Shown here one piece after another: positions 6,111 to 64,000 of a stretch of DNA of 64,000 nucleotides. Positions within the stretch are counted from its first letter, which is position 1. Each line of letters opens with the position of its first letter. The position numbers and the translations under genes are program-made. The DNA comes from a bacterium. GTDB lineage: Bacteria > UBA8248. The stretch spans positions 173,339 to 237,338 of the forward strand of contig OZ244906.1 in assembly GCA_965221655.1 (NCBI GenBank), given 5' to 3'. Below the pieces are notes generated by a model. It was not told the origin of the DNA, searched no databases, and saw only the letters and a program-made list of their open reading frames with translations.

Positions 6111-7055
6111 ATGTCGAAGCGTGATTATTACGAGGTGCTCGGAATCGAGCGCGGCGCCTCGGATGCCGAACTCAAGCGCGCCTTCAAGAGGCTCGCGCGC
6201 AAGTGGCACCCCGACGTGAACCCCGGGGACGCGAACGCCGAGGCGCGCTTCAAGGAGATCAGCGAGGCGTACGCCGTGCTCTCCGAACCCGAAAAGCGTC
6301 GCCGCTACGACGCCATGGGGCACGCGGCCTTCGGCGGCGGCAGCCCCTGGGGCGAGGGGGGTGCGCCCGGGGTGGAGGATATCCTGCGCGAGTTCGGGCT
6401 GGGCGACGTCTTCGGCAACATATTCGGCAGCGCGCGCGGCGCGGGCAGGCGCTACGCGCGGCCCGACGCCCCCCGCCGGGGCCAGGACGTGAACTACTCG
6501 ATGGAGATAGGTTTTGACGATTCGCTCAAGGGTCTCGCCACCACCATCACCGTCCCCAAGGACACCCACGAGAACGGCGCGCTGCAGCGCACGACCGAGC
6601 GCATTCAGGTGAAGATACCGCCCGGCGTCTCGAACGGCTCGCGCATTCGTCTGGCGGGCAAGGGAGAAGCCTCGGCGAACGGGGGGGAGCAGGGGGATCT
6701 CTACATCGTCACCAAGGTGCGCGAACACCCCTTCTTCGAGCGCAAGGGGGACAACCTCTACCTCGAACTTCCCGTCAGCCTCGGCGAGGCGCTGCTGGGT
6801 GCGCGCGTCGAGATCAACACCTTCGAGGGCACGACCAAGATGACGATTCCCCCCGGCACCCAGAACAGACAGACGTTCCGGCTGCCGGGCAAGGGCGCCC
6901 CGCAGCTCAAGGGCGGGGGCAGGGGCGATTTGTTCGTGGCCATCAACGTTCGCCTGCCCGAAGGCATGGACGAGGAGAGCCAGGAGATAGTCCGCGAACT
7001 GGAGCGGCGCAACCCCACCGCACCGCGCGCCAAAATGACGGGCGTGAGCATGTAG
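6111..7055 (+). CDS. cbpA: DnaJ-family co-chaperone without zinc finger (CbpA-like, type II J-protein)
   Basis: J domain ([33 protein letters not shown]) and a G/F-rich linker, then DnaJ C-terminal beta domains. No CxxCxGxG repeats are present. Confidence 0.85.
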
Positions 7056-7106
7056 GTCGCAGGGAAGCGAACGAAAGGCCCCCGACGGGGGGCGGAGGAG
7101 GAGACC

Positions 7107-7517
7107 GTGGCGCGCAGAAGGGCGAGAAGCGGACGCTACACCATCGGCGCAGTGGCGGAGATGTTCGAGGTCCACCAGCAGACGCTGCGTTTCTACGAGC
7201 GCGAGGGCCTCATCGTTCCCGCCCGAAGCGAGGGCAGGACGCGCTATTACTCCGAAGAGGACATCGAGCGTCTCGACGTCATCATGACGCTCACGCGCGA
7301 AATGGGCGTGAACCTGGCGGGCGTGCAGATAATCATCGATCTGCGCGAGAAGCTCGTGAAGGCCCTGGGGCGCCTGGGCGAACTCGAGGAATTGCTCGAA
7401 AGCCGTGCGTTCGAGGACTTGCGCGCGCAGATGGACGACGCGACGCCCGAGATGCAGGCCATGATTCCCGCCCTTTCGGGCAAGCTCGTACGCGCCGCCA
7501 GGAGGAGAACATCGTGA
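7107..7517 (+). CDS. hspR: MerR-family heat-shock transcriptional regulator (HspR/CbpM-like)
   Basis: MerR helix-turn-helix motif [49 protein letters not shown]. The gene sits directly after the cbpA-like gene, as in known cbpA-hspR and cbpA-cbpM pairs. GTG start after GGAGGAGGAG. Confidence 0.75.
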
Positions 7518-50823: not shown

Positions 50824-51030
50824 TGTATGGTCTGGGGCGCGCTCTACAAATCCTCGCCATGGTGGATTGTGCCATTGCGCTGTTCGTCGGCATGGTGAAT
50901 CCTGCGGCCTATGCCGTACAACTCGCCATTCTGGGGTCGGCTGTCGTCTTGTTCGCCGCCGGGCGTTTGATACAGCAAAAGGCGCCCGCGCCGGGTAGAC
51001 GTCGTCTCTCCTCCGCGCGGGAGAGCGAAT
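50824..51030 (+). CDS. Hypothetical small membrane protein (69 aa, weak)
   Basis: The ATG directly follows the aminotransferase stop. Two hydrophobic helices (LAMVDCAIALFVGMV..., LAILGSAVVLFAAG). Confidence 0.3.
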
Positions 51031-52417
51031 GAGGGCGTCTCGCCTGGGACGGCGCAGGGCGTTTTATGATTGGTGGGAATCGTCCTCTCAGTTTTACTTC
51101 CGCGAGAATTTCGGTGATGTAGGCGAGGAAATTAGAAAAAATTTCGCCGAAATACTTTTCCCTCCTCACGCGGAACCTACACTGCCTGAGCTGGCCTTGC
51201 CGGTTTCTTTCATCCATTTGAGGCTCTTGGCCGGGGAGGAGCTGGGTTTCGTGTTGCGACGAGTGGAAAACCTGGCGGCGCTTTTCGGCGCGCGGGCCGC
51301 AAAGCCTACGATCGGCCTCTTGTATCTGGTCTTGACGGCTCTCACGTCCAGACACGCGAAACTCTCGTCCATGGCGAGGGCGCAAACCGCGTTCTTCAGC
51401 CTGTTGCTTCGCCGCGTGGCGCATATGCTCGATGACGGAGTAGATGAAGATACCATACGCGAAGAGCTTTCCGGTGTATGGGAGATTCGTACTGAAGCGA
51501 TCGCAAACGCCACGCTGGCGAGTGGTCGCGGTCTTTGGCGACGCCTCGGCGATGCGCATCTTGGATTGACGCCTTTGCCCATGAACCTGGACGTGTGGCT
51601 GGAGAGCAACGGGCTGACCAATAGGGTGGCCCGGACCCGAAAAACGTACGGGAGGGTGGAGGAGAGCCATCATCTGTTCGAGGTATTCAATCGTCTGGCG
51701 GCGATAGAGGGTTTGGGAATTGCCATGGCGTCCGCAGAGTGTGCTGGCAGAGAGGCGGCATGGGAAGACGTGCGGATTGGCTTGGTGAGGAGTTTGGAGG
51801 GCGCCATGAATGGCATTACGCCCTGGGAGTCGGCGGTTTTGCGTGCCGGGTCGCCACGACTGCTTTCCCTGCTTTCATGGGCGAACAAACTCCAGTTGTT
51901 GCATGAGGGGGAAACACCCACGGCTTACCCCGGACGTGAGAAACTCCCCGATTGGCTGGAGGATTTTCTGAGCGACAAAAACGAAAATGAAAACGACGGT
52001 ATTCTCTCGTCGGGGCGATTCATCGTGGGCGGAGAAACGTACATCGTGGTCGGGGTCGATGCGGCGGCTTCGCCCGAGTTGCTGTCGGTGGCTTTGGGTG
52101 CACCTGAGTGTGTCGAGGCGAATGTGCTGGGTCTCGGGGTTCGTTTCGGGGACGGGACGCACAGGTCGTTTCCCTTTCGACTCGATGAGGGGAAAGACCT
52201 TTTGGCGGCGATATATTTGGCCGAGCAGGATGACGTGCGGCTGGACTTTATCGTTCGAGGGGAGGACAGGAATTGGCGGTTCGGCGCCTCTTCGTATCTG
52301 GTGATGACGCAAGAGCATCGAAAGATGTGGGTGGCATGTCTGCTTTCTTATCTGTCGAAAAAATTCCAAGGCGATGAAGGCAGGATTCAGCTGGAAATTT
52401 TGAGGGGCATGAAGTGA
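51029..52417 (+). CDS. Hypothetical protein (462 aa, no recognised domain)
   Basis: Long ORF with ordinary amino-acid composition in the lower-GC block. No motif I can assign. Confidence 0.5.
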   Translation: MRASRLGRRRAFYDWWESSSQFYFRENFGDVGEEIRKNFAEILFPPHAEPTLPELALPVSFIHLRLLAGEELGFVLRRVENLAALFGARAAKPTIGLLYLVLTALTSRHAKLSSMARAQTAFFSLLLRRVAHMLDDGVDEDTIREELSGVWEIRTEAIANATLASGRGLWRRLGDAHLGLTPLPMNLDVWLESNGLTNRVARTRKTYGRVEESHHLFEVFNRLAAIEGLGIAMASAECAGREAAWEDVRIGLVRSLEGAMNGITPWESAVLRAGSPRLLSLLSWANKLQLLHEGETPTAYPGREKLPDWLEDFLSDKNENENDGILSSGRFIVGGETYIVVGVDAAASPELLSVALGAPECVEANVLGLGVRFGDGTHRSFPFRLDEGKDLLAAIYLAEQDDVRLDFIVRGEDRNWRFGASSYLVMTQEHRKMWVACLLSYLSKKFQGDEGRIQLEILRGMK

Positions 52418-52483
52418 GAAAGTAATGGATGTCGACGCCGTTGCGCTGGTGAGGCGCACAGACTTTCGGCGGGGATTGCTCCA

Positions 52484-53761
52484 TTAGGCGCGCACTCTCC
52501 AGACGAGGGCTACGGCAATGAATCTGCTCGCCGCCATGGCCGTGAACACCCAAAACCATCCGTCCGAAACGCTGAGAGACAGCCATCCGAAGAATATTGC
52601 CTGAAGGGCTCCGTAAATGTAGCCATGGGCGTCCAATACGCCCGCGGCCGTTCCGGCGAGTCGTCTGCCGGCGAGATCGACGCCCAGTGCCTGCACGGTG
52701 GACATGTTGACGCAAAATCCGCCGACGATCAGCAAAACGACGGCGAGTGGAATGTTATCGGCGGGCGCATAAGCGATTCCTATCATCGCGGCAGCGCTCA
52801 AAAAAGCGGCGAGGATGATGACGATGGAGCGGTTGCTCTTGAAGAATCGATCGGAAATGATGCCGCCAAATATAGGGCCGAATAAATATCCAAGCGGATA
52901 GGCGAAGGTGAGCAGACCCATTTGCTTCAGGTTGAAACCGCCCATTTGTGCGTAATACAAGGGCGCCCAGGAGACGACGCCGTAGCGAACTACGTTGTCC
53001 AGCCCTTTTACGTGGCACGCCAGGAAGAAGCGCAAATTGGTCATTAGGTGCAAGTATGCCTTTAGGCCACGCTCACTCTCTTCGCCTGCTGTTTCCGCTT
53101 CCCGGGAGACGGCGTCTGCTTCCTGATATTCGGGAAGGTTCAGTTCTGCGGGCTTGTCTTTCGCGATGACGTAAAAAATGATTCCCATGAAGGCGATGAT
53201 CATCGGGGGATAGCGAATCGCGGCGCGCCAGCCGTATTGCGCCGCCACCCAGGGTACGATTGCCCAAACGATGAGGAGAGCTATTCCCGCGGACGTTCCC
53301 ACGAGTCCAATCGCCTGGCCGCGCTCACGTCTGGGCCACCATTGCGCCACGAGGCCGAGCCCTGGCCCCCACGTCGCCGCGTTCACGAAACCAACCACCG
53401 CCCAGGGGATGGCAAGTGTGGAGATGGAATTGCCGAAGCTTGCCACGAAGTTGAAAAGCGACGTGGTGATTGCGGCAAAGAGAATTGTGTTTCGATACCC
53501 TACTTTTTCTGCGATTCGCCCAAAGATCAGATCACCGAAGGCGAATCCCCAAAACATCCACGAGTTGATCCATCCGGTATCGGCTCGCGTGATGCCCAAA
53601 TCCTGGATGACGGCGTATTGCACCAGGCTGAAGTTGAATCTGCCCAGATAGTTGAAGGCATAGAAAACGCAAAAGGCGATGAGAACGCGCCATTTCCATC
53701 GATGAAACTCGGGAGGCAGGTCGTGATATTCGACTTGGTTCGGATTTCCCGGAGTATTCAT
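52484..53761 (-). CDS. MFS transporter (oxalate/formate or organophosphate antiporter-like)
   Basis: 425 aa, 12 hydrophobic segments, YLGRFNFSLV and GFAFGDLIFGRIAEKVGYR motifs. Confidence 0.85.
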   Translation of the reverse strand: MNTPGNPNQVEYHDLPPEFHRWKWRVLIAFCVFYAFNYLGRFNFSLVQYAVIQDLGITRADTGWINSWMFWGFAFGDLIFGRIAEKVGYRNTILFAAITTSLFNFVASFGNSISTLAIPWAVVGFVNAATWGPGLGLVAQWWPRRERGQAIGLVGTSAGIALLIVWAIVPWVAAQYGWRAAIRYPPMIIAFMGIIFYVIAKDKPAELNLPEYQEADAVSREAETAGEESERGLKAYLHLMTNLRFFLACHVKGLDNVVRYGVVSWAPLYYAQMGGFNLKQMGLLTFAYPLGYLFGPIFGGIISDRFFKSNRSIVIILAAFLSAAAMIGIAYAPADNIPLAVVLLIVGGFCVNMSTVQALGVDLAGRRLAGTAAGVLDAHGYIYGALQAIFFGWLSLSVSDGWFWVFTAMAASRFIAVALVWRVRA

Positions 53762-53889
53762 GTTCGGAGGGTTTCATCGGCAGATTCGAGACGCGCGCTC
53801 GTTTTACCCGTCTGTGGATGTCTGGCGTTTTTCAAGGAAGTATTGCTCACCTCGCGTACAAGAGTGTAATGGGTGGTGCCCATATCGAC

Positions 53890-55155
53890 TTATCGCTCGA
53901 ACTCTATCAGATGGTAGTTCTTTTTTCCCTTTCTCAAAAGAACATATCGATTGAAGAGTATGTCGTCGACGGACAACATACTGTCCTCCCCCGTAATACG
54001 GCGATTGTTCACGTAAATTCCGCCGCCTTTCAGGTCTTTGCGCGCCAGGGACTTCGACTTGCAAAGCCCGGTTTCCACCAGTGCGTCGATCAGGGGATAG
54101 GGTGGTGATCCTACTTGTCGGGTGCTCGGCATTTCCTCTGCCGCCGATAGCAAGTCGTTTTTCTCGATACCGTCGAGTTCGGCGCCAAAAAGAATTTTAG
54201 CGGCACGCTCCGCACTCCGCGCCACGTCTGCGCCATGCACGAGCGTCGTCAATTCCCTGGCGAGGCGGCGTTGTCCCTTCCGTTTTTCCGGCGACTCGAG
54301 ATGCTCCCTTTCGATTTCGTCGATCTCCCGGGTTGACAAGAAGGTAAAGTATTTCAAGAACCTGCCTACGTCCCTGTCGTCGGTTTGAATCCAGTATTGC
54401 GAGAATCGATATGGGCTCGTCCGCTTCGTGTCCAGCCAGATATTTCCTTCTTCCGTCTTGCCGAATTTTCTCCCGTCCGAAGTGGTGATGAGCGGAAAAG
54501 TCATTCCGTATGCGGGTTTTCCGTGCGTACGGCGAATCAATTCGATTCCTGCCGTGATGTTACCCCACTGATCGGAGCCGCCGATTTGCAGGGTGCAATT
54601 CTCCCGTTCGAATAAATGAAGGAAGTCATATGCCTGGAGCACCATGTAGCTGAACTCGGTGTACGATATGCCAGCATCGGCGATGCGTGCCTTGACGGAT
54701 TCTTTCGCCATCATGTAACCGATGGGAAAATGCTTGCCTACGCTACGAAAAAAATCGATGAGGGGCATTTGGTTCAGCCATTCCGCGTTGTTCAACATCC
54801 GCGCGGCATAAGGGCCTGCCCCGAAATCCAGGAACTTCTCCAGTTGGGTTCTGATGCCTTGGAGGTTGTGCTCTAACACTTCCGGGGTCAGGAGGTTTCT
54901 TTCTTCGGATTTCCCCGAGGGGTCTCCTATCATACCGGTTCCGCCTCCAACGAGCGCTATGGGTCGGTGCCCCGCGCGCTGAAAACGCATGAGTCCCATG
55001 ATGGGAACCAAATTGCCGATGTGCAGGCTGTCGGACGTGGGGTCGAAGCCGCAATAGAGGCTCATGCCGCCTTTTTCAAGAGCTCCCTGCATCTCCGCCT
55101 GATCCGTATGATCATGCACGAGGCCGCGAACTCTCAGTTCATCCAGCAAACTCAT
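53890..55155 (-). CDS. tyrS: Tyrosine--tRNA ligase
   Basis: YCGFDPTSDSLHIGNLV is the HIGH motif region. KFGKTE is the KMSKS-equivalent. C-terminal S4-like domain. Confidence 0.9.
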   Translation of the reverse strand: MSLLDELRVRGLVHDHTDQAEMQGALEKGGMSLYCGFDPTSDSLHIGNLVPIMGLMRFQRAGHRPIALVGGGTGMIGDPSGKSEERNLLTPEVLEHNLQGIRTQLEKFLDFGAGPYAARMLNNAEWLNQMPLIDFFRSVGKHFPIGYMMAKESVKARIADAGISYTEFSYMVLQAYDFLHLFERENCTLQIGGSDQWGNITAGIELIRRTHGKPAYGMTFPLITTSDGRKFGKTEEGNIWLDTKRTSPYRFSQYWIQTDDRDVGRFLKYFTFLSTREIDEIEREHLESPEKRKGQRRLARELTTLVHGADVARSAERAAKILFGAELDGIEKNDLLSAAEEMPSTRQVGSPPYPLIDALVETGLCKSKSLARKDLKGGGIYVNNRRITGEDSMLSVDDILFNRYVLLRKGKKNYHLIEFER

Positions 55156-55315
55156 GGGTACTCTCCGGATTGCTCCCGTTATTTCGAAGCAGTTGGATAA
55201 TGTTTCCCGTCAGGGAAATATGTAATCCTTCCGCCGATATTGTATCTTATTCGATATATATCAAGGCACGGGACTTGCCGAAAGTTGAATCACTCATTTC
55301 GAGAGAAACGGGATA

Positions 55316-56059
55316 GTGCTTCGGTTTGATTTTCAGGGCAGAAAAGTGGTTCTGACGGGGGCCACGGGGGATGTAGGCAAGGCGCTTGCCCAGGGATTTC
55401 TGGACGTGGGGGCGAAAGTCGTCGTCACGGGGAGAAATTCGGAGAAATTGCGTCTCATTGCGGGTTCCTACGAAATGATGAAGAAAATACCCTGCGATTT
55501 GGAAAATCTCGATGAAGTGAAAGCCATGATTGGGGAGGCAACTGCATGGCTGGGAGGATGTGACATCTTCGTGCACGCGGCAGCGAATATGGTGGTGAAG
55601 CCCCCTCTCTCGCTTGATGCGTTTGATTGGAGGCGTGCGCTGCATGTAAATCTCCTTGCTCCCTATTTTTGCATTCAGGGGGTGCTGCCGGCGCTCAAGA
55701 CTTCTCCGGCGGGGCGAATAATTCTCTATGGTTCCGGAGCCGGGAAATCGGGCGGCTTGGGCCATAATCTCACATACGGAGCTTCGAAAGGCGGTATTTT
55801 GGCCATGACGTTCAATCTCGCTCGTGCCTTGGCGAAAACGAAGGTGACGGTGAACTGTCTGGTTCCCGGTCCGATCGATGGGTCGTTGATGCGGGAGTTC
55901 GGCCCGGATTTGTATGACAAGGCGATAAAGAAACATCCCATGGGCAGATTCGCCCTGCCCTCAGAATTGGTGCCTGCTACCCTGTTTCTCGCCAGTGAGG
56001 AAGCCGCCCACATCACGGGAGAAGCACTGGACGTCAATGGAGGCTATTTTACCGATTAG
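55316..56059 (+). CDS. SDR-family oxidoreductase (3-oxoacyl-ACP-reductase-like)
   Basis: VVLTGATGDVGKAL glycine motif. YGASKGGILAMT is the YxxxK catalytic motif. Confidence 0.8.
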   Translation: MLRFDFQGRKVVLTGATGDVGKALAQGFLDVGAKVVVTGRNSEKLRLIAGSYEMMKKIPCDLENLDEVKAMIGEATAWLGGCDIFVHAAANMVVKPPLSLDAFDWRRALHVNLLAPYFCIQGVLPALKTSPAGRIILYGSGAGKSGGLGHNLTYGASKGGILAMTFNLARALAKTKVTVNCLVPGPIDGSLMREFGPDLYDKAIKKHPMGRFALPSELVPATLFLASEEAAHITGEALDVNGGYFTD

Positions 56060-56129
56060 GTATGTTCCCAGAAAATGGGAGCGGAACGTTCTCATCTTTC
56101 AAGAAACGATTTCAGGCGGGGAGTGAATT

Positions 56130-57098
56130 TTGCACGATCAAACGGCAGGCAATGAAGAATCAGGGGCACGGATCCTTGAAATAGCCGGCATATCTTTGCG
56201 TTTAAGCAGGCCTGCTGAGCAAGATCTAGAGTGGATCGGTCAGACAGAAGTGTTGCGCCAACTTCACGCTTGTTGGCTGGTCGTGGCGGAAGAGGATTTT
56301 GCTCTCTCCCCGAGAATCGTCGGTCCCCCGGGAATCGGGAAAACGACCTTGGCGATGGCAGCGGCACGGGAGAGAAATCAGGAACTTTTTATTTTTCAGT
56401 GTACTTCCGATACCCGCCCGGAGGATTTGTTGATTACGCCCGTGCTGGCGGAATCGGGGAAAATTGCCTATCACGCATCCCCTCTGGTTACGGCGATGAT
56501 AAGGGGGGGAGTCTGCGTGCTGGATGAAGGCAACCGCATGAGCGAAAAGAGCTGGGCTTCGCTGGCGCCGCTGCTCGATCATCGTCGTTACGTGGAGTCC
56601 ATCGTGGCGGGCATTACGATAAGGGCGCACCCGGATTTTCGCTGTTGCGTGACCATGAACGAGGATGCCTCGACGTACGAAGTGCCCGATTACATTCTAT
56701 CGAGGCTACACCCCACTTTGGAGCTTGCGTTCCCAAACAGGAGAGACGAACTGTCTATCCTCAAATATCATTTGCCGTTTGCTCCAAGCGAGATGTTGGC
56801 CTTGACAGTGGAATTCTTGCAGGAGTCCCATGAGTTGGATCTCGATTATTCTCCCCGGGACGGAATTCATCTTCTTCAATACGCACTAAAACGTCTCGCG
56901 CAGGACCCGGAGCATCCGCTTTCGCAAGACGAAGCCTGGAGAGAAGCACTCGCGAAGGTTCTGGGGGATGAAGCATTGGATCTGAAGGAGCTTGCGCGCA
57001 GGAGGCGCAAAGCACTCGGTGACGAACCGCCACCGATCGATTTCGGAGATCTGTTTTTTGGCGGCGACGCCCCGCTGCCTCCTGAACACGGCGATTGA
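56130..57098 (+). CDS. MoxR/CbbQ/NorQ-type AAA+ ATPase (AAA_5)
   Basis: [11 protein letters not shown] Walker [11 protein letters not shown] Walker B (the LDE.NR form typical of the MoxR clade). TTG start after GGGGAG. Confidence 0.8.
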
Positions 57099-57101
57099 TC
57101 C

Positions 57102-59075
57102 ATGAGTGCGCAAGATTTTCTTGCAATCACTAATCGAATCATCGTCCTCCCCGTCGTCCACGGCTCGGGAGATTTCGCCGTTGAAGTGCGCGACAGGATT
57201 TTGGAAATCGAGCCTGATTGCGTTGCGGTTCCACTGCCACCTTCTTTCCAGGAGGAAGTAGAGGCGGGAGTGGATGCTCTTCCGTATGTATCCATGGTGT
57301 CGGTACATGAGGATGTCGAACCTCATCTCCAGGGCGACGATACGTATCCGGATGTATCATGGGACGCTTATCCGCCTCTGGAAGGTGATGCGCAAGACGA
57401 AGAAAAATTCTCGTCGAATGAATCCGACGCATCTTCTCATAATTATGTGCCTATCGACCCATGTCAGCCTGTAATTTCTGCTCTCAGGGTGGCGATGGGA
57501 GAGCATATCCCCAGGGCTTTCGTTGATTTGGAAGTGGGGCGGTTTCATGCAGAAACTCATGCACTGCCCGATCCCTATGGACTCAAGAAAGTACCGCTGG
57601 AAGCGTTTGCCGCTTCTCTCTTGACGGTAGCACCAAGACCCTCCGCTTTGTCACAACGTGCGGCGAGAATCCGCTGGATGGCCAACGCCTTACTGGAACT
57701 CGAAACGAAATACGAGCGCATCGTCTTCGTCTGCTCCGCGATGGATTGGCCCTGGATTCGGGCGGCTTGCCGCAACGGATCATCGGGTGATGAAACATTG
57801 TTCGAATCCCATATGGGTGTATCTCTCCACGAACCTCGAAGGCACGGGGTATCGGAGAATACCCTGGCTTTTTTTCTGGGCGAACTTCCTTACCTAACGC
57901 ATTTGTATGAGGAGAAGCGTGAACAATTCATGGTTGATTCAAATTTGGGTATTGACGGCGTCAAAGAACTTCTCATGGAGGCGAGAGCGGCGTGGCTCGC
58001 AGAATATCGACCGACCCGGAATTGGGCTACCCCCCAAAGGCTCCAGATATTTTTGCAATATGCCCGAAATTTGACGCTTCAAGGCAGAAGGTTGACGCCG
58101 GACTTATTTACCCTTGTCCTTGCCGCCAAGCAGACTGTCGGCGATGCCTTCGCTCTCTCGCTGCTCGAGACCGCTAGGGAATATCCCTATCAACGTGAAG
58201 GTTCTTCATTTGCTGAAGATGAACTTGTCCACGTAGGCGTGGGTCGTGCATTGTTCCCCGACGAGGGTGTCGGAATCACCAAAAACAGGTTAGGGGGCTC
58301 GGCTGTCGTTTGGAGGAGCATTTCCCTCAAACCAAAGCCCACCCCGTTTGAAAAACGCAAATGGGCACAGAGGTGGAACCCCTTTGGCATGTGTTCCTGG
58401 CCACCGGAAGATCAAGCCATAGAAAGTTTTCATACCCATGTGCGTGAGCAGGCCAAAGCGCTCCTGGGAGAGGATTTGGCCCGCACCGAAAAGTTCACGA
58501 CGTCCATAAAGGATGGCCTCGACATCAGGGAAACGCTCCGCAACTGGCATACGGGCGATCTGTACGTAAAGGACATTCCTCCGGCGCGCGGGGGTCTGGA
58601 AGTCGTCGTTTTTTTATTCGATACCCCAGCGGATGCCGAGAAATATTCGTGGCGTACGATGTGGTACGCGGAACACGAAAATGAATCGACTCTTTGTATG
58701 TATGCCACCCCGTTCGAGAACGATTTGGTGGGACCGGGGATTGCGGAATCGCAATACGGCGGGGCGTTTTTTGTTTTCCCTCCCCGGCACGTTGAAGATG
58801 TGTGGCGGGATGCGCGATTTCAGTATACGCACACGCTGGAGGAGCGGTTGATTGCCGGGGCCTGTTTTCACTCCCGAGAGCGGTTCATCGCCCTGGTGAG
58901 TCCGCATCCACCTGGTGCGAGTTGGCGCCGCATTGCAAGGTTTTATCAAAAGCACTTGATCTACATCCCCATCGCTCGATTTTCCGGAGAAACCATCGCA
59001 CGCATCCGTCGCTTTCATGTTCTCGGAGGAAAGAACGTCAGAAGCTATGCCGCGAAGTTCATTAGAGAGATGTAA
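57102..59075 (+). CDS. Uncharacterised 657-aa partner of the AAA+ ATPase (possible degenerate VWA-like C-terminus)
   Basis: The ATG lies 3 nt after the ATPase stop. There is no MIDAS DxSxS motif. A VWA-shaped stretch LEVVVFLFDTPADAEKYS sits where a MIDAS loop would be. Confidence 0.6.
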   Translation: MSAQDFLAITNRIIVLPVVHGSGDFAVEVRDRILEIEPDCVAVPLPPSFQEEVEAGVDALPYVSMVSVHEDVEPHLQGDDTYPDVSWDAYPPLEGDAQDEEKFSSNESDASSHNYVPIDPCQPVISALRVAMGEHIPRAFVDLEVGRFHAETHALPDPYGLKKVPLEAFAASLLTVAPRPSALSQRAARIRWMANALLELETKYERIVFVCSAMDWPWIRAACRNGSSGDETLFESHMGVSLHEPRRHGVSENTLAFFLGELPYLTHLYEEKREQFMVDSNLGIDGVKELLMEARAAWLAEYRPTRNWATPQRLQIFLQYARNLTLQGRRLTPDLFTLVLAAKQTVGDAFALSLLETAREYPYQREGSSFAEDELVHVGVGRALFPDEGVGITKNRLGGSAVVWRSISLKPKPTPFEKRKWAQRWNPFGMCSWPPEDQAIESFHTHVREQAKALLGEDLARTEKFTTSIKDGLDIRETLRNWHTGDLYVKDIPPARGGLEVVVFLFDTPADAEKYSWRTMWYAEHENESTLCMYATPFENDLVGPGIAESQYGGAFFVFPPRHVEDVWRDARFQYTHTLEERLIAGACFHSRERFIALVSPHPPGASWRRIARFYQKHLIYIPIARFSGETIARIRRFHVLGGKNVRSYAAKFIREM

Positions 59076-59284
59076 AGACGGTTTCCCCTCTCGAAGTTTC
59101 TTCGCAGGCGATGATTGCACGTTGTGAACGCCACTTTGCTCACCGGGTTTCGTACGTAACGCAGTCCATGGTTATCCCCAAAGAGCTAAAACCCCTCGAC
59201 CCGGCAGGGGTGCTCACGCAACGTATGGTAGACTGCGCAGGTGATTGCATTTGAAGCGAGCCACCCAATCAAGGAGTTGCGGCG

Positions 59285-59620
59285 ATGAACGTCCAGGAAC
59301 TCGTAGCCAGATTTCCCGAAATCCCCGAAGATTTGCTTGGTGAGGAAGTGTTGGCGCAATTTGCGGATGTTTTTGGCTATCCTCTTTCTATCGCCCAGAA
59401 ACCCTCTGCATGTTCCACGGAATACGACTCGGGAAACCACTATTACATGAAACTTGTAAACCCGATGGGCATCTATCGTATCGGATTGATGAAGCGCGAT
59501 ATGTTGCTCGCCCAAATAGGCGAGTTGGTCGAAAAACAGCAGGCGGACCCGAGTTTTGCCGAGACGTTGGTGCCGTCCGATGTCGCGGTGAGAGAGGTTA
59601 GGGGGCCAGGCTGTGGATGA
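59285..59620 (+). CDS. Hypothetical protein (111 aa)
   Basis: Plus-strand ORF with a ribosome-binding site (AAGGAG), preferred over the competing minus-strand ORFs that have low-complexity sequence. Confidence 0.4.
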   Translation: MNVQELVARFPEIPEDLLGEEVLAQFADVFGYPLSIAQKPSACSTEYDSGNHYYMKLVNPMGIYRIGLMKRDMLLAQIGELVEKQQADPSFAETLVPSDVAVREVRGPGCG

Positions 59621-59695
59621 GGGTAGCGTGTGTAGAAATTCCCTGGCTCCCTTAGGGAAAAGCGGGTTTTTCCCGCTGGGTACAGCAATCCTTTC

Positions 59696-60643
59696 ATGAT
59701 GCAGGTCTCTGCTTTGCCGAACATTTCCCGAGTGGTTCTTGCAGGATCGTTCGCCAAGGAATTTCTCGACGCACCGGGCAAAGCGCGAATCATCAGTGTA
59801 TTCCGCAGAAGTTTGTACGTGGAAAATACGTCCGGGCGAATCGTGTGCATCGGGGCACGGGATATCGGCCCGGGACCGTTGAACGCGCTTTGTGAATTCT
59901 CCGGCGACGTGGATTTCAAAAAACAAATGCTCTCTTCGGTGGACGCTTTGGTCGCAAACGGTTTTGTTCGCCTCGGCCAGGGCGTAGGGCTCGATACCTC
60001 GCAAATCGAAGAATGGAAACCTGAGCCCTTCCCCGTTTTCCGGGATTTTGAGTCTCTGCTATGTAATCTCTCTTTTGTCGCTGCGTGGATAGACGATAGA
60101 GGGCCTCGAGAAGGTCTGGCTCCACTCGTTCCGCACATTATAAGATGTGAAGATCTGTCAAGCGACGACGTTTTTCGACAAATTGCGTGGAAGGCGATTT
60201 CTGAACTCGGCAACTGGTTGTCGCGTCGCCTGAGCGGAAGGGCAAGTCTCGATTTTTCCTCGGTGGACAATCAACTCGTCGGTCTGGGGCCGGGGCTCAC
60301 TCCGTCCGGAGATGATTTTTGGTGTGGTGTGATGATAGCGCTGTCTGCTCTGGGACGTTTTGACGTCTTGGGGGAGGTGGGCACTACCTTATTGCAACAG
60401 GCCAGGGCGCGAACGAACAAAATCAGTTGCGCGCATTTGGAATGTGCGGCCAATGGACAGGGAGCGCATGCCCTGCATGAAGTGCTCGCGGCGATTACCA
60501 CAAAGGGTGAGCATCTTGTGGGTCGCGCCTTGCGTGTGCTGGGTAGAATCGGACACACCTCCGGCTGGGATTCTCTGGCCGGGCTGGTGTGTGTTTTGAT
60601 GTGTATGCCGTCTTTGCTGCAATGCCGGCGTGTTTCGACATAA
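59696..60643 (+). CDS. Hypothetical protein with GLTPSGDD motif (possibly DUF2877/AllH-like)
   Basis: 315 aa. The central LGPGLTPSGDDFWCGVMIAL stretch is the basis for the tentative family guess, which comes from memory only. Confidence 0.45.
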   Translation: MMQVSALPNISRVVLAGSFAKEFLDAPGKARIISVFRRSLYVENTSGRIVCIGARDIGPGPLNALCEFSGDVDFKKQMLSSVDALVANGFVRLGQGVGLDTSQIEEWKPEPFPVFRDFESLLCNLSFVAAWIDDRGPREGLAPLVPHIIRCEDLSSDDVFRQIAWKAISELGNWLSRRLSGRASLDFSSVDNQLVGLGPGLTPSGDDFWCGVMIALSALGRFDVLGEVGTTLLQQARARTNKISCAHLECAANGQGAHALHEVLAAITTKGEHLVGRALRVLGRIGHTSGWDSLAGLVCVLMCMPSLLQCRRVST

Positions 60644-60662
60644 ACCTCATGGATGGGGACAC

Positions 60663-61553
60663 ATGAGCAAGGTAGCGGTGTTGGGAGTCGGGGCGATTGG
60701 TGGTGTGTTCGGGGTTCGGTTGTGCCGAGCGGATGGGCACGACGTGACACTCTGCGTGCGAAAGCCCATCGATAGGCTCGTGGTGGAAACACCCGGGTCG
60801 GTTGTCGAATCCAGGGTGACATGCGCTACGGAACCCTCACAGATAGGAGCCGTCGATTGCGTCATCCTTGCGGTGAAGGGGTACCAGGTGCGAGGTGTTG
60901 CTTCTTGGCTCGAAACCCTTATAGGGGCCGATACCATCGTCGCCGTTTTGCAAAATGGTGTGGAACACGAAGAAAGAGTCGCCCCATACGCCAAAGGAGC
61001 AGAAGTCGTTCCGGTGGTGGTGAATTGTCCGGCGGACAGGTTGGCTCCCGGTCATGTGGTGCAGCAGGGAGGCGCCCAACTTGTTCCCCAAGAGGGTCGG
61101 GGAGCACGTTTTCTCGTGTCCCTTTTCGAGGGTACGGACATTCCGGTGAGGCCGACAACTGATTTCACGACTGCTTCTTGGGCGAAGTTGTGCAACAACA
61201 TCGGCGCCGGTCCCGCCACTGCGCTGACCGATAAGGGGAGAGGGGTGCTGCACGAGCCCGACATTGCCGAACTTTGTTGCGCGCTCGTACGTGAATGTGC
61301 CTCGGTGGGCAGGGCAGAGGGTGCGAAATTGGCGGACGACATTGCCGAGCGAACGATAGAGCGTCTCCACGATGCGGACCCGGAGGCGACTACCTCCATG
61401 CTCGTCGACAGAAGATCGGGGCGAAGAATCGAGGCGGACGTCATGACGGGGGCGGTCGTTCGCTTGGGTGCCAAGCATGGAATCGCCACACCCCTCAACA
61501 GTGCGGTTCACGCCCTCCTTTGTTCCATCAACATGGCCGGCAATATAAAATAA
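60663..61553 (+). CDS. panE: 2-dehydropantoate 2-reductase (ketopantoate reductase, PanE/ApbA family)
   Basis: MSKVAVLGVGAIGGVFG Rossmann motif. C-terminal ApbA_C-like helical domain with ...ASMLVDRRSGRRIEAD. Confidence 0.8.
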   Translation: MSKVAVLGVGAIGGVFGVRLCRADGHDVTLCVRKPIDRLVVETPGSVVESRVTCATEPSQIGAVDCVILAVKGYQVRGVASWLETLIGADTIVAVLQNGVEHEERVAPYAKGAEVVPVVVNCPADRLAPGHVVQQGGAQLVPQEGRGARFLVSLFEGTDIPVRPTTDFTTASWAKLCNNIGAGPATALTDKGRGVLHEPDIAELCCALVRECASVGRAEGAKLADDIAERTIERLHDADPEATTSMLVDRRSGRRIEADVMTGAVVRLGAKHGIATPLNSAVHALLCSINMAGNIK

Positions 61554-62195: not shown

Positions 62196-63335
62196 TCACG
62201 AGTCGATGCACGTCCAGGAATCCCGGCCCAAATCTCCCAATCCCTCGCACCCGTCTTGTGTGACGGCGACCGCATCTTCAATCTTCACATGACCGACCTC
62301 CGGATGGCGGATGTCGCATTCTACCGAAACCACCATGCCTGCCTCGAGGGTTCGGTTCACCTCGGGGCCGAAGCGTGGCAATTCCTGCTGCACCATGCCT
62401 ATTCCGTGCACTTCAAAGATCCCGAAATCGGAAAACCCCGTATCCTGAAATGCCCGATACCCGCGCTCATGAACCGAAGCGCAACTGGCTCCGTGCCGGA
62501 TGGCGTCTCGGCATTGATTGACGGAATGGAGACAGGCCTTATGTAATTCCTCGGCGAGAGGAGATGGTTGGCCCCGGACCCCCATGCGACAGATGTCCGA
62601 CATGTAGCCCGCCTCCGAGCCGCCTGCGTCGATGTGAAGAATTTCTCCCCTTTCCCAGATTGTATCGGATGGCTCACGCCGCATGGCAGCTCCTGCGGCG
62701 GTGAAGGCGTAGTGAAAATGGAGCCCGCGTCGCACCATCTCTTCTTCTACTCTGCGGGCCACCTCCCGTGTGGTGACGTCTTGCGTACCGGCTTGAAAGC
62801 CGGCCTGTATGGCTTCTGCGTCCGCAAGGGCGGCACGTCGAAATATCTCCAGTTCGTCTTCTCTTTTTACGGCGCGGAGTTCTTCGAGAATTTCGAGTGA
62901 ATCGACGAATCGGGCACCGCGCATCTCGTTCGCTAGCGTTTCCATCGCATCGACCGGCAAGAAAGCGCGCTCGACGGCTATGGTCCCCCCGTCCAGGGCC
63001 CGATTTCGAATTGCTTCGGCAGCCGTTTTCGCTGCGCCGACCGTTCCTCTTGCCTTCGTATAAATGACGTCGGGTACCCAGGTTTTTACCTCGTTGCGAG
63101 GAGACGCTTCGACGCGCCAAGCGACTTGAAAGGAGGTTTCCGTACGTTTTTGGGGAATCCCGACGAAGGGGAGGTACTGACTTGGGCCAATCGCGGCTAT
63201 CCTCTCGCGAAAGTGAAAGTAGTACCCCCCCGTCAGATAACGAAGGTTGTGGGGCGTGTGCGCGAGTATCAGATCGACGCCGGCTTCTTCCATCAGGCGT
63301 TCGAGTTTGGTCTGGTCATAAGGGGGCTTTATCAT
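62196..63335 (-). CDS. M24-family metallopeptidase (creatinase/prolidase-like), paralogue 2
   Basis: ILHIDAGGSEAGYMSDICRMG and HGIGMVQQELP motifs. Probable start MIKPPYDQ (63335), overlapping the upstream M24 stop as ATGA. The ORF could extend to 63350. Confidence 0.8.
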   Translation of the reverse strand: MIKPPYDQTKLERLMEEAGVDLILAHTPHNLRYLTGGYYFHFRERIAAIGPSQYLPFVGIPQKRTETSFQVAWRVEASPRNEVKTWVPDVIYTKARGTVGAAKTAAEAIRNRALDGGTIAVERAFLPVDAMETLANEMRGARFVDSLEILEELRAVKREDELEIFRRAALADAEAIQAGFQAGTQDVTTREVARRVEEEMVRRGLHFHYAFTAAGAAMRREPSDTIWERGEILHIDAGGSEAGYMSDICRMGVRGQPSPLAEELHKACLHSVNQCRDAIRHGASCASVHERGYRAFQDTGFSDFGIFEVHGIGMVQQELPRFGPEVNRTLEAGMVVSVECDIRHPEVGHVKIEDAVAVTQDGCEGLGDLGRDSWTCIDS

Positions 63336-64000
63336 TCGACTACGACCCAATCTTCGCGTCCCAGATCCCCTAGAGGTTCATATCCATCGGTTGTCACCGC
63401 CACGGCGTCTTCCACTTTGACGTAACCGACCTCGGGGTGTCGGATGTCGGTCTCTATCGAAATCACCATTCCCTCTTCGAGTTTTCTCTCGATTCCCGGA
63501 CCGAAATGCGGCTGTTCGTGCGAGACCATGCCGATGCCGTGGATGATGAAATGGCCATATTCACCGTGTCCGGTGCTTTTAAGTTGATTCCAGCCCCGTT
63601 CGTAGATGTCGCCGCACACTGCACCCGGACGCAATGCGCTTCTCACGTGGTCTTGCGTGTGCAGGCAGGCCTTGTAGAGTTCATCGGCCAGGGCAGATGG
63701 TTTTCCTCTCACGCCCATTCGGCAGATGTCGGTGAGGTAGTCGGCCTCCGAACCACCTGCATCGAGATGCAGTACTTCGCCCTTTTCCCACACTTTCTGG
63801 GAGGGGGCGCGCAACATTCCCGGCCCTGCTGCTGCAAAGACCCACAAGAAGTGCAGACCTCTGTTCGTCATGCCCCTTTCCACGGCATGGGCGACTTCCC
63901 TCGTGGTCGCCCCGGGTTTCGCAGTTTCGAAGCCTTCACGGATTGCCTCGGCGTCCGACTGAGAAATACGGCGGTAGCGCTCGATTTCCTCTGGCGTTTT
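63332..64000 (-). CDS. M24-family metallopeptidase, paralogue 3 (C-terminal part; gene continues past the window end)
   Basis: ...VLHLDAGGSEADYLTDICRMGV...HGIGMVSHEQPHFGP... The stop is at 63332. Confidence 0.7.
   Translation of the reverse strand, partial: KTPEEIERYRRISQSDAEAIREGFETAKPGATTREVAHAVERGMTNRGLHFLWVFAAAGPGMLRAPSQKVWEKGEVLHLDAGGSEADYLTDICRMGVRGKPSALADELYKACLHTQDHVRSALRPGAVCGDIYERGWNQLKSTGHGEYGHFIIHGIGMVSHEQPHFGPGIERKLEEGMVISIETDIRHPEVGYVKVEDAVAVTTDGYEPLGDLGREDWVVVE

Follow-up and report, generated by a model that had tools for sequence, protein, structure and literature searches.

The ATPase gene and its partner

The stretch of DNA described here (the window) comprises 64,000 nucleotides of contig OZ244906.1 (assembly GCA_965221655.1) from a bacterium of the lineage UBA8248. 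It contains two adjacent genes, one encoding an AAA+ ATPase of the MoxR class and the other a protein of 657 amino acids (aa), referred to below as the partner. A sequence-only reading of the window had put these two genes forward as an undescribed ATPase-driven module. Both open reading frames (ORFs) were found where that reading had placed them (Table 1). The module can still be called undescribed: every named homolog of the partner is a "hypothetical protein", and no functional literature on the pair was found.

Table 1. Features of the ATPase and partner genes (positions are those of the window)
Feature	Position	Strand	Basis or remark
MoxR-class (AAA_5) AAA+ ATPase, 322 aa, TTG start	56130..57098	+	ORF; Pfam AAA_5; PDB sequence matches
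Walker A motif GPPGIGKTT, residues 65-73	56322..56348	+	Translation; nearly invariant in 46 orthologs
Walker B region, residues 128-137	56511..56540	+	Translation; LDEGNR (131-136) invariant in 46 orthologs
Junction: ATPase stop TGA, codon TCC, partner start ATG, in one frame	57096..57104	+	Sequence
Partner protein, 657 aa, ATG start, member of a large unnamed family	57102..59075	+	ORF; homologs
N-terminal module of partner, residues ~13-341: TIKI/TraB/ChaN-fold domain and helical region	57138..58124	+	Remote homolog of DUF5682/YehM N-terminus
Variable acidic insert of partner, residues 74-108	57321..57425	+	Alignment A1; predicted local distance difference test (pLDDT) below 50; absent from most homologs
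C-terminal conserved domain of partner, residues 368-657, including stop codon	58203..59075	+	Best conserved part of family; no close solved relative
LEVVVFLFDTPADAEKYS, residues 499-516 of partner: predicted strand 1 and next loop of C-terminal domain	58596..58649	+	Stretch earlier called VWA-like

By its sequence the ATPase belongs to the MoxR class, as had been claimed. It matches Pfam AAA_5 (PF07728) with an E-value of 2.8e-20 (73.2 bits, cut-off 22), both the Walker A and the Walker B motif are intact, and its nearest relatives among solved sequences are the AAA modules of midasin (2e-23), CbbQ (1.5e-11), and NorQ (1e-8). Orthologs from other phyla are 63-84% identical to it. The start codon is preceded by a Shine-Dalgarno-like run, GGGGAG. 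The ATPase reaches no NCBIfam equivalog, and GvpN was ruled out as its identity by a score of just 34 bits against the NCBIfam cut-off of 267. The scheme of Snider and Houry divides MoxR proteins into seven subfamilies: MRP, APE0892, RavA, CGN, APE2220, PA2707, and YehL (PMC3893208). The window's ATPase is not YehL-like, matching YehL neither in phmmer (E above 10) nor in BLASTP. Among solved structures it is nearest to CGN members, in a comparison from which APE2220, PA2707, and APE0892 were absent. Against the PADLOC models it has no significant match, the best one (E of 0.016) covering the P-loop only.

The partner has no match in Pfam, NCBIfam, or PADLOC. More than 3463 close homologs were found, and an exhaustive search for the family gave 1027 representative clusters at 50% identity. 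Identity across phyla is 47-80%. The named sources are Nitrospinota, Tectomicrobia, Pirellulaceae, Isosphaeraceae, and a Neochlamydia plasmid. A public gene call, P0016 (465 aa), starts the partner at Met193 and is 100% identical to residues 193-657. This call omits window positions 57102-57677 and drops 192 conserved N-terminal residues, including the motifs HGSGD and PIDPCQ; all homologs favor the 657-aa form.

Linkage and neighborhood of the two genes

The ATPase-partner pair is found in Nitrospinota, Tectomicrobia, Planctomycetota, and Chlamydiota. Its linkage was surveyed in 85 loci of the window's clade with flanks of up to 7 kb on each side, and 75 of these loci were informative, that is, had enough upstream sequence. 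In 55 of the 75, the ATPase gene is found upstream on the same strand, within 150 nucleotides (nt) in 36 and further away in 19. No ATPase gene is present in the surveyed flanks of the other 20. These loci are distributed over several sublineages, which points to secondary separation of the two genes.

Outside Nitrospinota, the sole companion of the partner gene is the ATPase gene (L012, L015, L019, L020). Partners just 27-28% identical to that of the window also follow an AAA_5 gene (L021, L022, L109). The ATPases of L021 and L022 match the window's ATPase with E-values of about 1e-100, and because these distant pairs keep an orthologous ATPase, the two genes have been inherited together. L021 and L022 belong to an intermediate subfamily labeled DUF5682, and each has a Zn_ribbon_TFIIB gene near or directly upstream of the AAA_5 gene (2505-2984 on the minus strand of L021 and 6628-7170 on the plus strand of L022). 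L109 is plasmid pS13 (231 kb) of Neochlamydia sp. S13, the single plasmid match in a search of 72,556 records. The RefSeq-annotated pair is found there at 138151-140864 with a 5-nt gap, under the names "AAA family ATPase" and "hypothetical protein", and has an AbiEi antitoxin, a group II intron, and a recombinase in its vicinity.

Neighboring ORFs from about 85 loci, chosen with the guidance of GC content at third codon positions, were scanned against Pfam (123 upstream and 136 downstream, 259 in total). No family was found in more than nine of them, and there is therefore no conserved third gene. VWA is not among the 25 commonest Pfam families listed per scan. Nor is any Pfam-recognizable enzyme gene conserved beside the pair, which leaves no co-localized candidate for a client. 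Because no other neighbor is conserved, the ATPase and partner genes can be regarded as a two-gene module. In a minority of loci, genes for LigA or Lhr helicase are found downstream of the pair. The sequence-only reading had named a short-chain dehydrogenase/reductase (SDR) and the ORFs at 51029, 59285, and 59696 as possible clients. These genes are syntenic in Nitrospinota only, and in other phyla the pair stands without them. Their nomination as clients is therefore unsupported.

The partner starts 3 nt past the ATPase stop, and both ORFs are in the same reading frame. Tight translational coupling had been proposed from this spacing. The 3-nt gap is confirmed in the window, and the conserved pair is often tightly spaced, but such coupling does not extend to the whole family. 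In 51 loci that have the ATPase upstream, the spacers vary between a 4-nt overlap and about 2.6 kb. They are 25 nt or shorter in about 20 of the 51 and at least 150 nt in 13 to 19, depending on the measuring method, and some of the long ones contain inserted ORFs. One sublineage (L040, L043, L044, L049, L051, L053, L064) has an extra ORF of about 120-225 aa between the two genes, with spacers of 557-1074 nt. DUF6881 is matched by three of the scanned upstream neighbor ORFs. Fusion of the two in-frame ORFs by stop-codon read-through was considered and dropped. Programmed read-through across the TGA-TCC junction is unlikely because relatives have a 4-nt overlap or other spacers. A scan of 55.1-59.75 kb for promoters and terminators returned fewer sites than shuffled sequences did, and no terminator between ATPase and partner.

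The long spacers and the 20 loci with no ATPase in the surveyed flanks are what would be expected if the two genes were merely adjacent and had no joint function. However, an orthologous ATPase is found upstream on the same strand in four phyla, down to a partner identity of 27%, while all other neighbors turn over. Mere adjacency is thus an unlikely explanation of the pair.

Two domains of the partner

The partner had been described as a protein of no assignable family. This description fails for its N-terminal ~340 residues, which have the TIKI/TraB/ChaN fold and are a remote homolog of DUF5682/YehM. Compared with solved proteins, the N-terminal half of the partner resembles the Ere-like proteins 2rad (score of 7.2) and 2qgm (6.9) and EreC (6.8). 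The N-terminal module shows the core fold, a parallel beta-sheet flanked by helices. The N-terminus of the partner is a member of the TIKI/TraB/ChaN/erythromycin-esterase superfamily.

E. coli YehM matches DUF5682 with an E-value of 2.4e-98 and is encoded in the gene order yehL (AAA_5), yehM, yehP (VWA_CoxE), and yehQ (SWIM). The window's partner itself has no match to Pfam DUF5682 (PF18934) at an E-value of 1 or better. When 75 family members were scanned at the same threshold, 24 matched DUF5682, six TraB_PrgY_gumN, and two ChaN. The DUF5682 matches examined in distant members cover N-terminal stretches only. In hhalign, the broad alignment of the family (A2) matched the DUF5682 alignment (A3) with a Prob of 96.2% and an E-value of 2.2e-9 over 268 columns, limited to residues ~13-341 of the window's partner and ~4-320 of YehM. 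Against YehM alone, A2 gave 92.9%. The broader alignment is needed for this match, as the narrow alignment A1 against the single YehM sequence gave a Prob of 0.6%. The C-terminal halves of the partner and YehM do not align in hhalign, which ends at residues ~341 and ~320, respectively.

Among the members of the TIKI superfamily are proteases (TIKI, RRSP) and esterases (Ere). A set of two histidines and two glutamates (2His/2Glu) is essential in RRSP, and mutating any of them abolishes activity; PMT, which is without this set, is inactive (PMC6254334). The predicted site in 79 outgroup representatives of the partner family consists of H20, E44, D122, E126, R189, E190, G212, and H215, and the E, E, and H positions are retained in 60-70 of the 79. 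In the window's clade, the same columns read H20, P44, Q122, S or A at 126, R189, I190, S212, and D215, and the replacements are in turn conserved in 35 members of the clade. Judged by alignment columns with no superposition, one His and both Glu of the 2His/2Glu set have been replaced in the clade and H20 has been kept. Because most of the family-conserved residues of the predicted TIKI site are replaced, the N-terminal domain in this clade is most likely not a TIKI-type hydrolase.

This bears on the idea that the pair is an ATP-dependent hydrolase, in which the AAA+ ring would unfold a substrate or present it to a protease or esterase domain of the TIKI/TraB type. The enzymes of the superfamily make such an activity conceivable, and the His, Glu, Glu, and His conserved in the 79 outgroup representatives mean that it may apply to the wider family. 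In the window's clade, however, E44 has become P, E190 has become I, and H215 has become D, while D122 and E126 are also replaced, and each of these changes is conserved in the 35 members. Set beside the behavior of RRSP and PMT, such losses make an ATP-dependent hydrolase improbable.

Nearly all of the family-wide conserved residues fall in the C-terminal half of the partner, and the window's protein keeps them. With a deeper alignment, residues 368-657 were modeled with a pLDDT of 93.8. In the first model, residues 425-497 had low confidence, probably because that alignment was less deep. The modeled topology is a three-strand meander followed by alpha-beta-alpha-beta-alpha. Structure comparison of the C-terminal domain was made with the PDB only. 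Its structural neighbors there are creatinase-N, ASKHA, and RNase H-like proteins, and no VWA structure was listed in either structure search with this domain. The stretch LEVVVFLFDTPAD, once read as a VWA-like strand-loop, is strand 1 of this confidently modeled domain with its creatinase-N, ASKHA, and RNase H-like neighbors.

The sequence-only reading was right that the partner has no metal ion-dependent adhesion site (MIDAS) and no detectable VWA domain. A regular-expression search of the partner found no DxSxS or D.[ST].[ST] motif, no VWA family was matched by any of the 75 family members at an E-value of 1 or better, and there is no confident VWA match. A short resemblance to YehP was seen. 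Partner residues ~470-507 (58509-58622) and YehP residues ~177-226 (L023 11968-13104) share the pattern D-x-[KR]-x-T-L-R ... W-H ... G-x-L-Y-[IV], which is followed by a hydrophobic strand ending in D. The MIDAS of YehP, DQSGS, stands where the partner reads DTPAD. The resemblance is not significant (hhalign E of 0.003 and Prob of 10%, or 1.8% against an alignment of six YehP sequences). It lies in the segment preceding the VWA domain and stops short of the VWA core. The shared pattern could be a common MoxR-docking element. It is recorded here as unexplained, not as evidence.

The same resemblance raises the question of whether the partner is a cryptic, MIDAS-less VWA adaptor of the CoxE type, with a YehM-like N-terminus fused to a degenerate YehP-like C-terminus. 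The window would then hold a classical MoxR-VWA chaperone pair, and the fusion would explain why there is no separate VWA gene nearby. Yet the hhalign match is poor and ends before the VWA core, and neither a VWA family match among the 75 members nor DxSxS in the partner was found. In addition, the model departs from the VWA fold in lacking a helix after strand 1 and in the meander formed by strands 1-3. A cryptic VWA adaptor is very improbable.

Genomic setting and possible role

From roughly 51 kb onward, the GC content of the window falls from about 0.66 to about 0.55. The pair had been described as lying in a compositionally atypical block of unannotatable ORFs. The GC dip is real, but the block is old in the lineage, it contains TyrRS, and its ORF at 59696 matches AllH. 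About 15 Nitrospinota genomes share synteny with the window over most or all of the CoaD-PanE stretch, and all six of the syntenic loci that were profiled (L003, L005, L007, L009, L016, L018) show a matching dip. Because syntenic Nitrospinota relatives share it, the dip has been inherited within the lineage and does not mark a recent insertion.

The low-GC block is about 10 kb long (window positions 51000-61500) and has a GC content of 0.52-0.57, compared with about 0.66 upstream; relatives return to 0.60-0.65 downstream. It contains an unknown 462-aa ORF, a major facilitator superfamily transporter, TyrRS, the SDR, the ATPase, the partner, a 111-aa ORF, and the AllH-like ORF. A lineage-conserved compositional island that holds an aminoacyl-tRNA synthetase is unusual. 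The AllH-like ORF (59696-60643, 315 aa) matches Pfam PF11392 AllH, an oxamate carbamoyltransferase subunit, with an E-value of 6.7e-24 over its last ~107 residues. Its N-terminal ~190 residues have no assignment, and there is an overlap of 14 nt between this ORF and the start of PanE. The ORF at 59285-59620 has no similarity to the TerB-like ORF found downstream in a Pirellulaceae locus. An Rfam scan of 48-64 kb found nothing. Further downstream, two adjacent paralogous ORFs on the minus strand (62196-63350 and 63332-63883) look like an M24-type peptidase or creatinase, by eye only. Relatives have a second copy, about 53% identical, adjoining the first.

The yeh system offers one comparison for the pair. 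In both, an AAA_5 ATPase of the MoxR family is immediately followed by a large protein, and the first ~300 residues of the large protein of the yeh system, a TIKI/TraB-like domain and a helical region, are homologous to the N-terminus of the partner. However, the window's ATPase is from another AAA_5 lineage, with no mutual phmmer match with YehL, and the partner stays below the Pfam DUF5682 threshold and has a C-terminal half that cannot be aligned with that of YehM. The pair is also without the VWA_CoxE, SWIM, and DUF4132 companions, and the His, Glu, and G-x-x-H residues replaced in the window's clade are still present in YehM. The yeh-type system exists as a five-gene cluster (L023 4280-14945; L104-L108) encoding a WGR/DUF4132 protein (about 1300 aa), AAA_5, DUF5682, VWA_CoxE, and SWIM proteins. 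It is found in E. coli, Serratia, Variovorax, Chitinivorax, a Rhodanobacteraceae metagenome-assembled genome, and a locus whose DUF5682 protein is named Erwinia rhapontici. A literature search on DUF5682, YehL/YehM, and DUF4132 found no functional study.

CbbQ-CbbO, NorQ-NorD, and CoxD-CoxE are another example. Their ATPases are of the same AAA_5 class, with sequence similarity of the window's ATPase to the solved CbbQ and NorQ, and the ATPase gene likewise adjoins a dedicated larger partner gene. In contrast to these MoxR-VWA pairs and to RavA-ViaA, the window's partner is without a VWA domain or MIDAS, and no Pfam-recognizable VWA or client enzyme gene is conserved near the pair. The window's N-terminal domain also differs from TIKI, TraB, PrgY, ChaN, and erythromycin esterases in its fusion with a large, unrelated C-terminal domain and in its linkage to an AAA+ ATPase, apart from the replacement of one His and both Glu in the predicted 2His/2Glu set.

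McrB-McrC also consists of two genes, an AAA_5 GTPase gene followed by that of a nuclease. The likeness to the window pair is one of gene architecture.

On the model of McrBC, the pair might be a conflict or defense system made of an AAA_5 NTPase and a nuclease-like effector of RNase H-like topology. Besides the shared order of an AAA_5 NTPase gene and a larger partner gene, the genes for LigA or Lhr helicase that lie downstream of the pair in a minority of loci and the toxin-antitoxin and recombinase genes beside the Neochlamydia plasmid relative could be read in this way. Several results oppose it. The pair has no McrBC match in Pfam or PADLOC, the folds of the partners are different, and there is no conserved acidic residue past strand 4, where RNase H-like nucleases have one. 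A defense role is unlikely because sequence conservation across phyla is very high, which is untypical of defense genes, because the pair is syntenic with the housekeeping genes for TyrRS, CoaD, and PanE across a whole Nitrospinota lineage, because PADLOC gives no significant match, and because no relative of the pair is found in phage or IMG/VR collections. Taken together with the one plasmid match, the cross-phylum identity and the absence from phage, IMG/VR, and PADLOC matches suggest that the pair behaves like housekeeping genes. High conservation at the sequence level suggests a cellular rather than a defense role.

The pair of the window is real and widespread, and consists of a MoxR-class ATPase and a dedicated partner distantly tied to DUF5682/YehM. 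We consider it slightly more probable than an even chance that the pair is a self-contained two-gene module, in which the ATPase works with or on its non-VWA partner. The partner would take the genomic place of the VWA adaptor of CbbQ-CbbO or NorQ-NorD and would be built differently. Its TIKI/TraB-fold domain would most likely serve as a scaffold or binding surface in this clade. The C-terminal alpha/beta domain, which is of no known family and carries the family-wide conserved residues, would be the likely functional core. The two proteins would interact physically, and the ATPase ring would spend ATP on changing the conformation or the assembly state, either of the partner or of a client bound by it. 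Such a client would be encoded away from the pair.

Several points weigh against this explanation. In the loci with no ATPase in the surveyed flanks, the partner may act alone, or the ATPase may be encoded at another genomic site. Many spacers measure tens to hundreds of nt, which means that translational coupling is not family-wide. The putative catalytic loss of the N-terminal domain is read from alignment columns, with no superposition of the active site; this clade still has H20 and R189, and the invariant C121, C211, and D215 could form a different site. Finally, the C-terminal domain gives no functional hint beyond its topology.

It is possible, although doubtful, that the pair is a VWA-independent AAA+ machine not recognized before, with the C-terminal domain as its core and a conserved task, such as the assembly or maturation of a complex, in four phyla. 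If this is true, the module would define a MoxR subfamily of its own, with an adaptor or effector of a new class.

MoxR-class ATPases are usually understood through their VWA/MIDAS partners, and here one comes with a partner in which no VWA domain can be detected. This partner belongs to a large family (more than 1000 clusters at 50% identity) that occurs in at least four phyla, shows strong conservation, and is named only "hypothetical protein". Recognition of a TIKI/TraB-type module at the N-terminus gives a first handle on the uncharacterized DUF5682/YehM proteins. In one large branch, the predicted active site of this module has been replaced while the ATPase has been kept. A function for either the window pair or the yeh system would open a new class of AAA+-driven processes.

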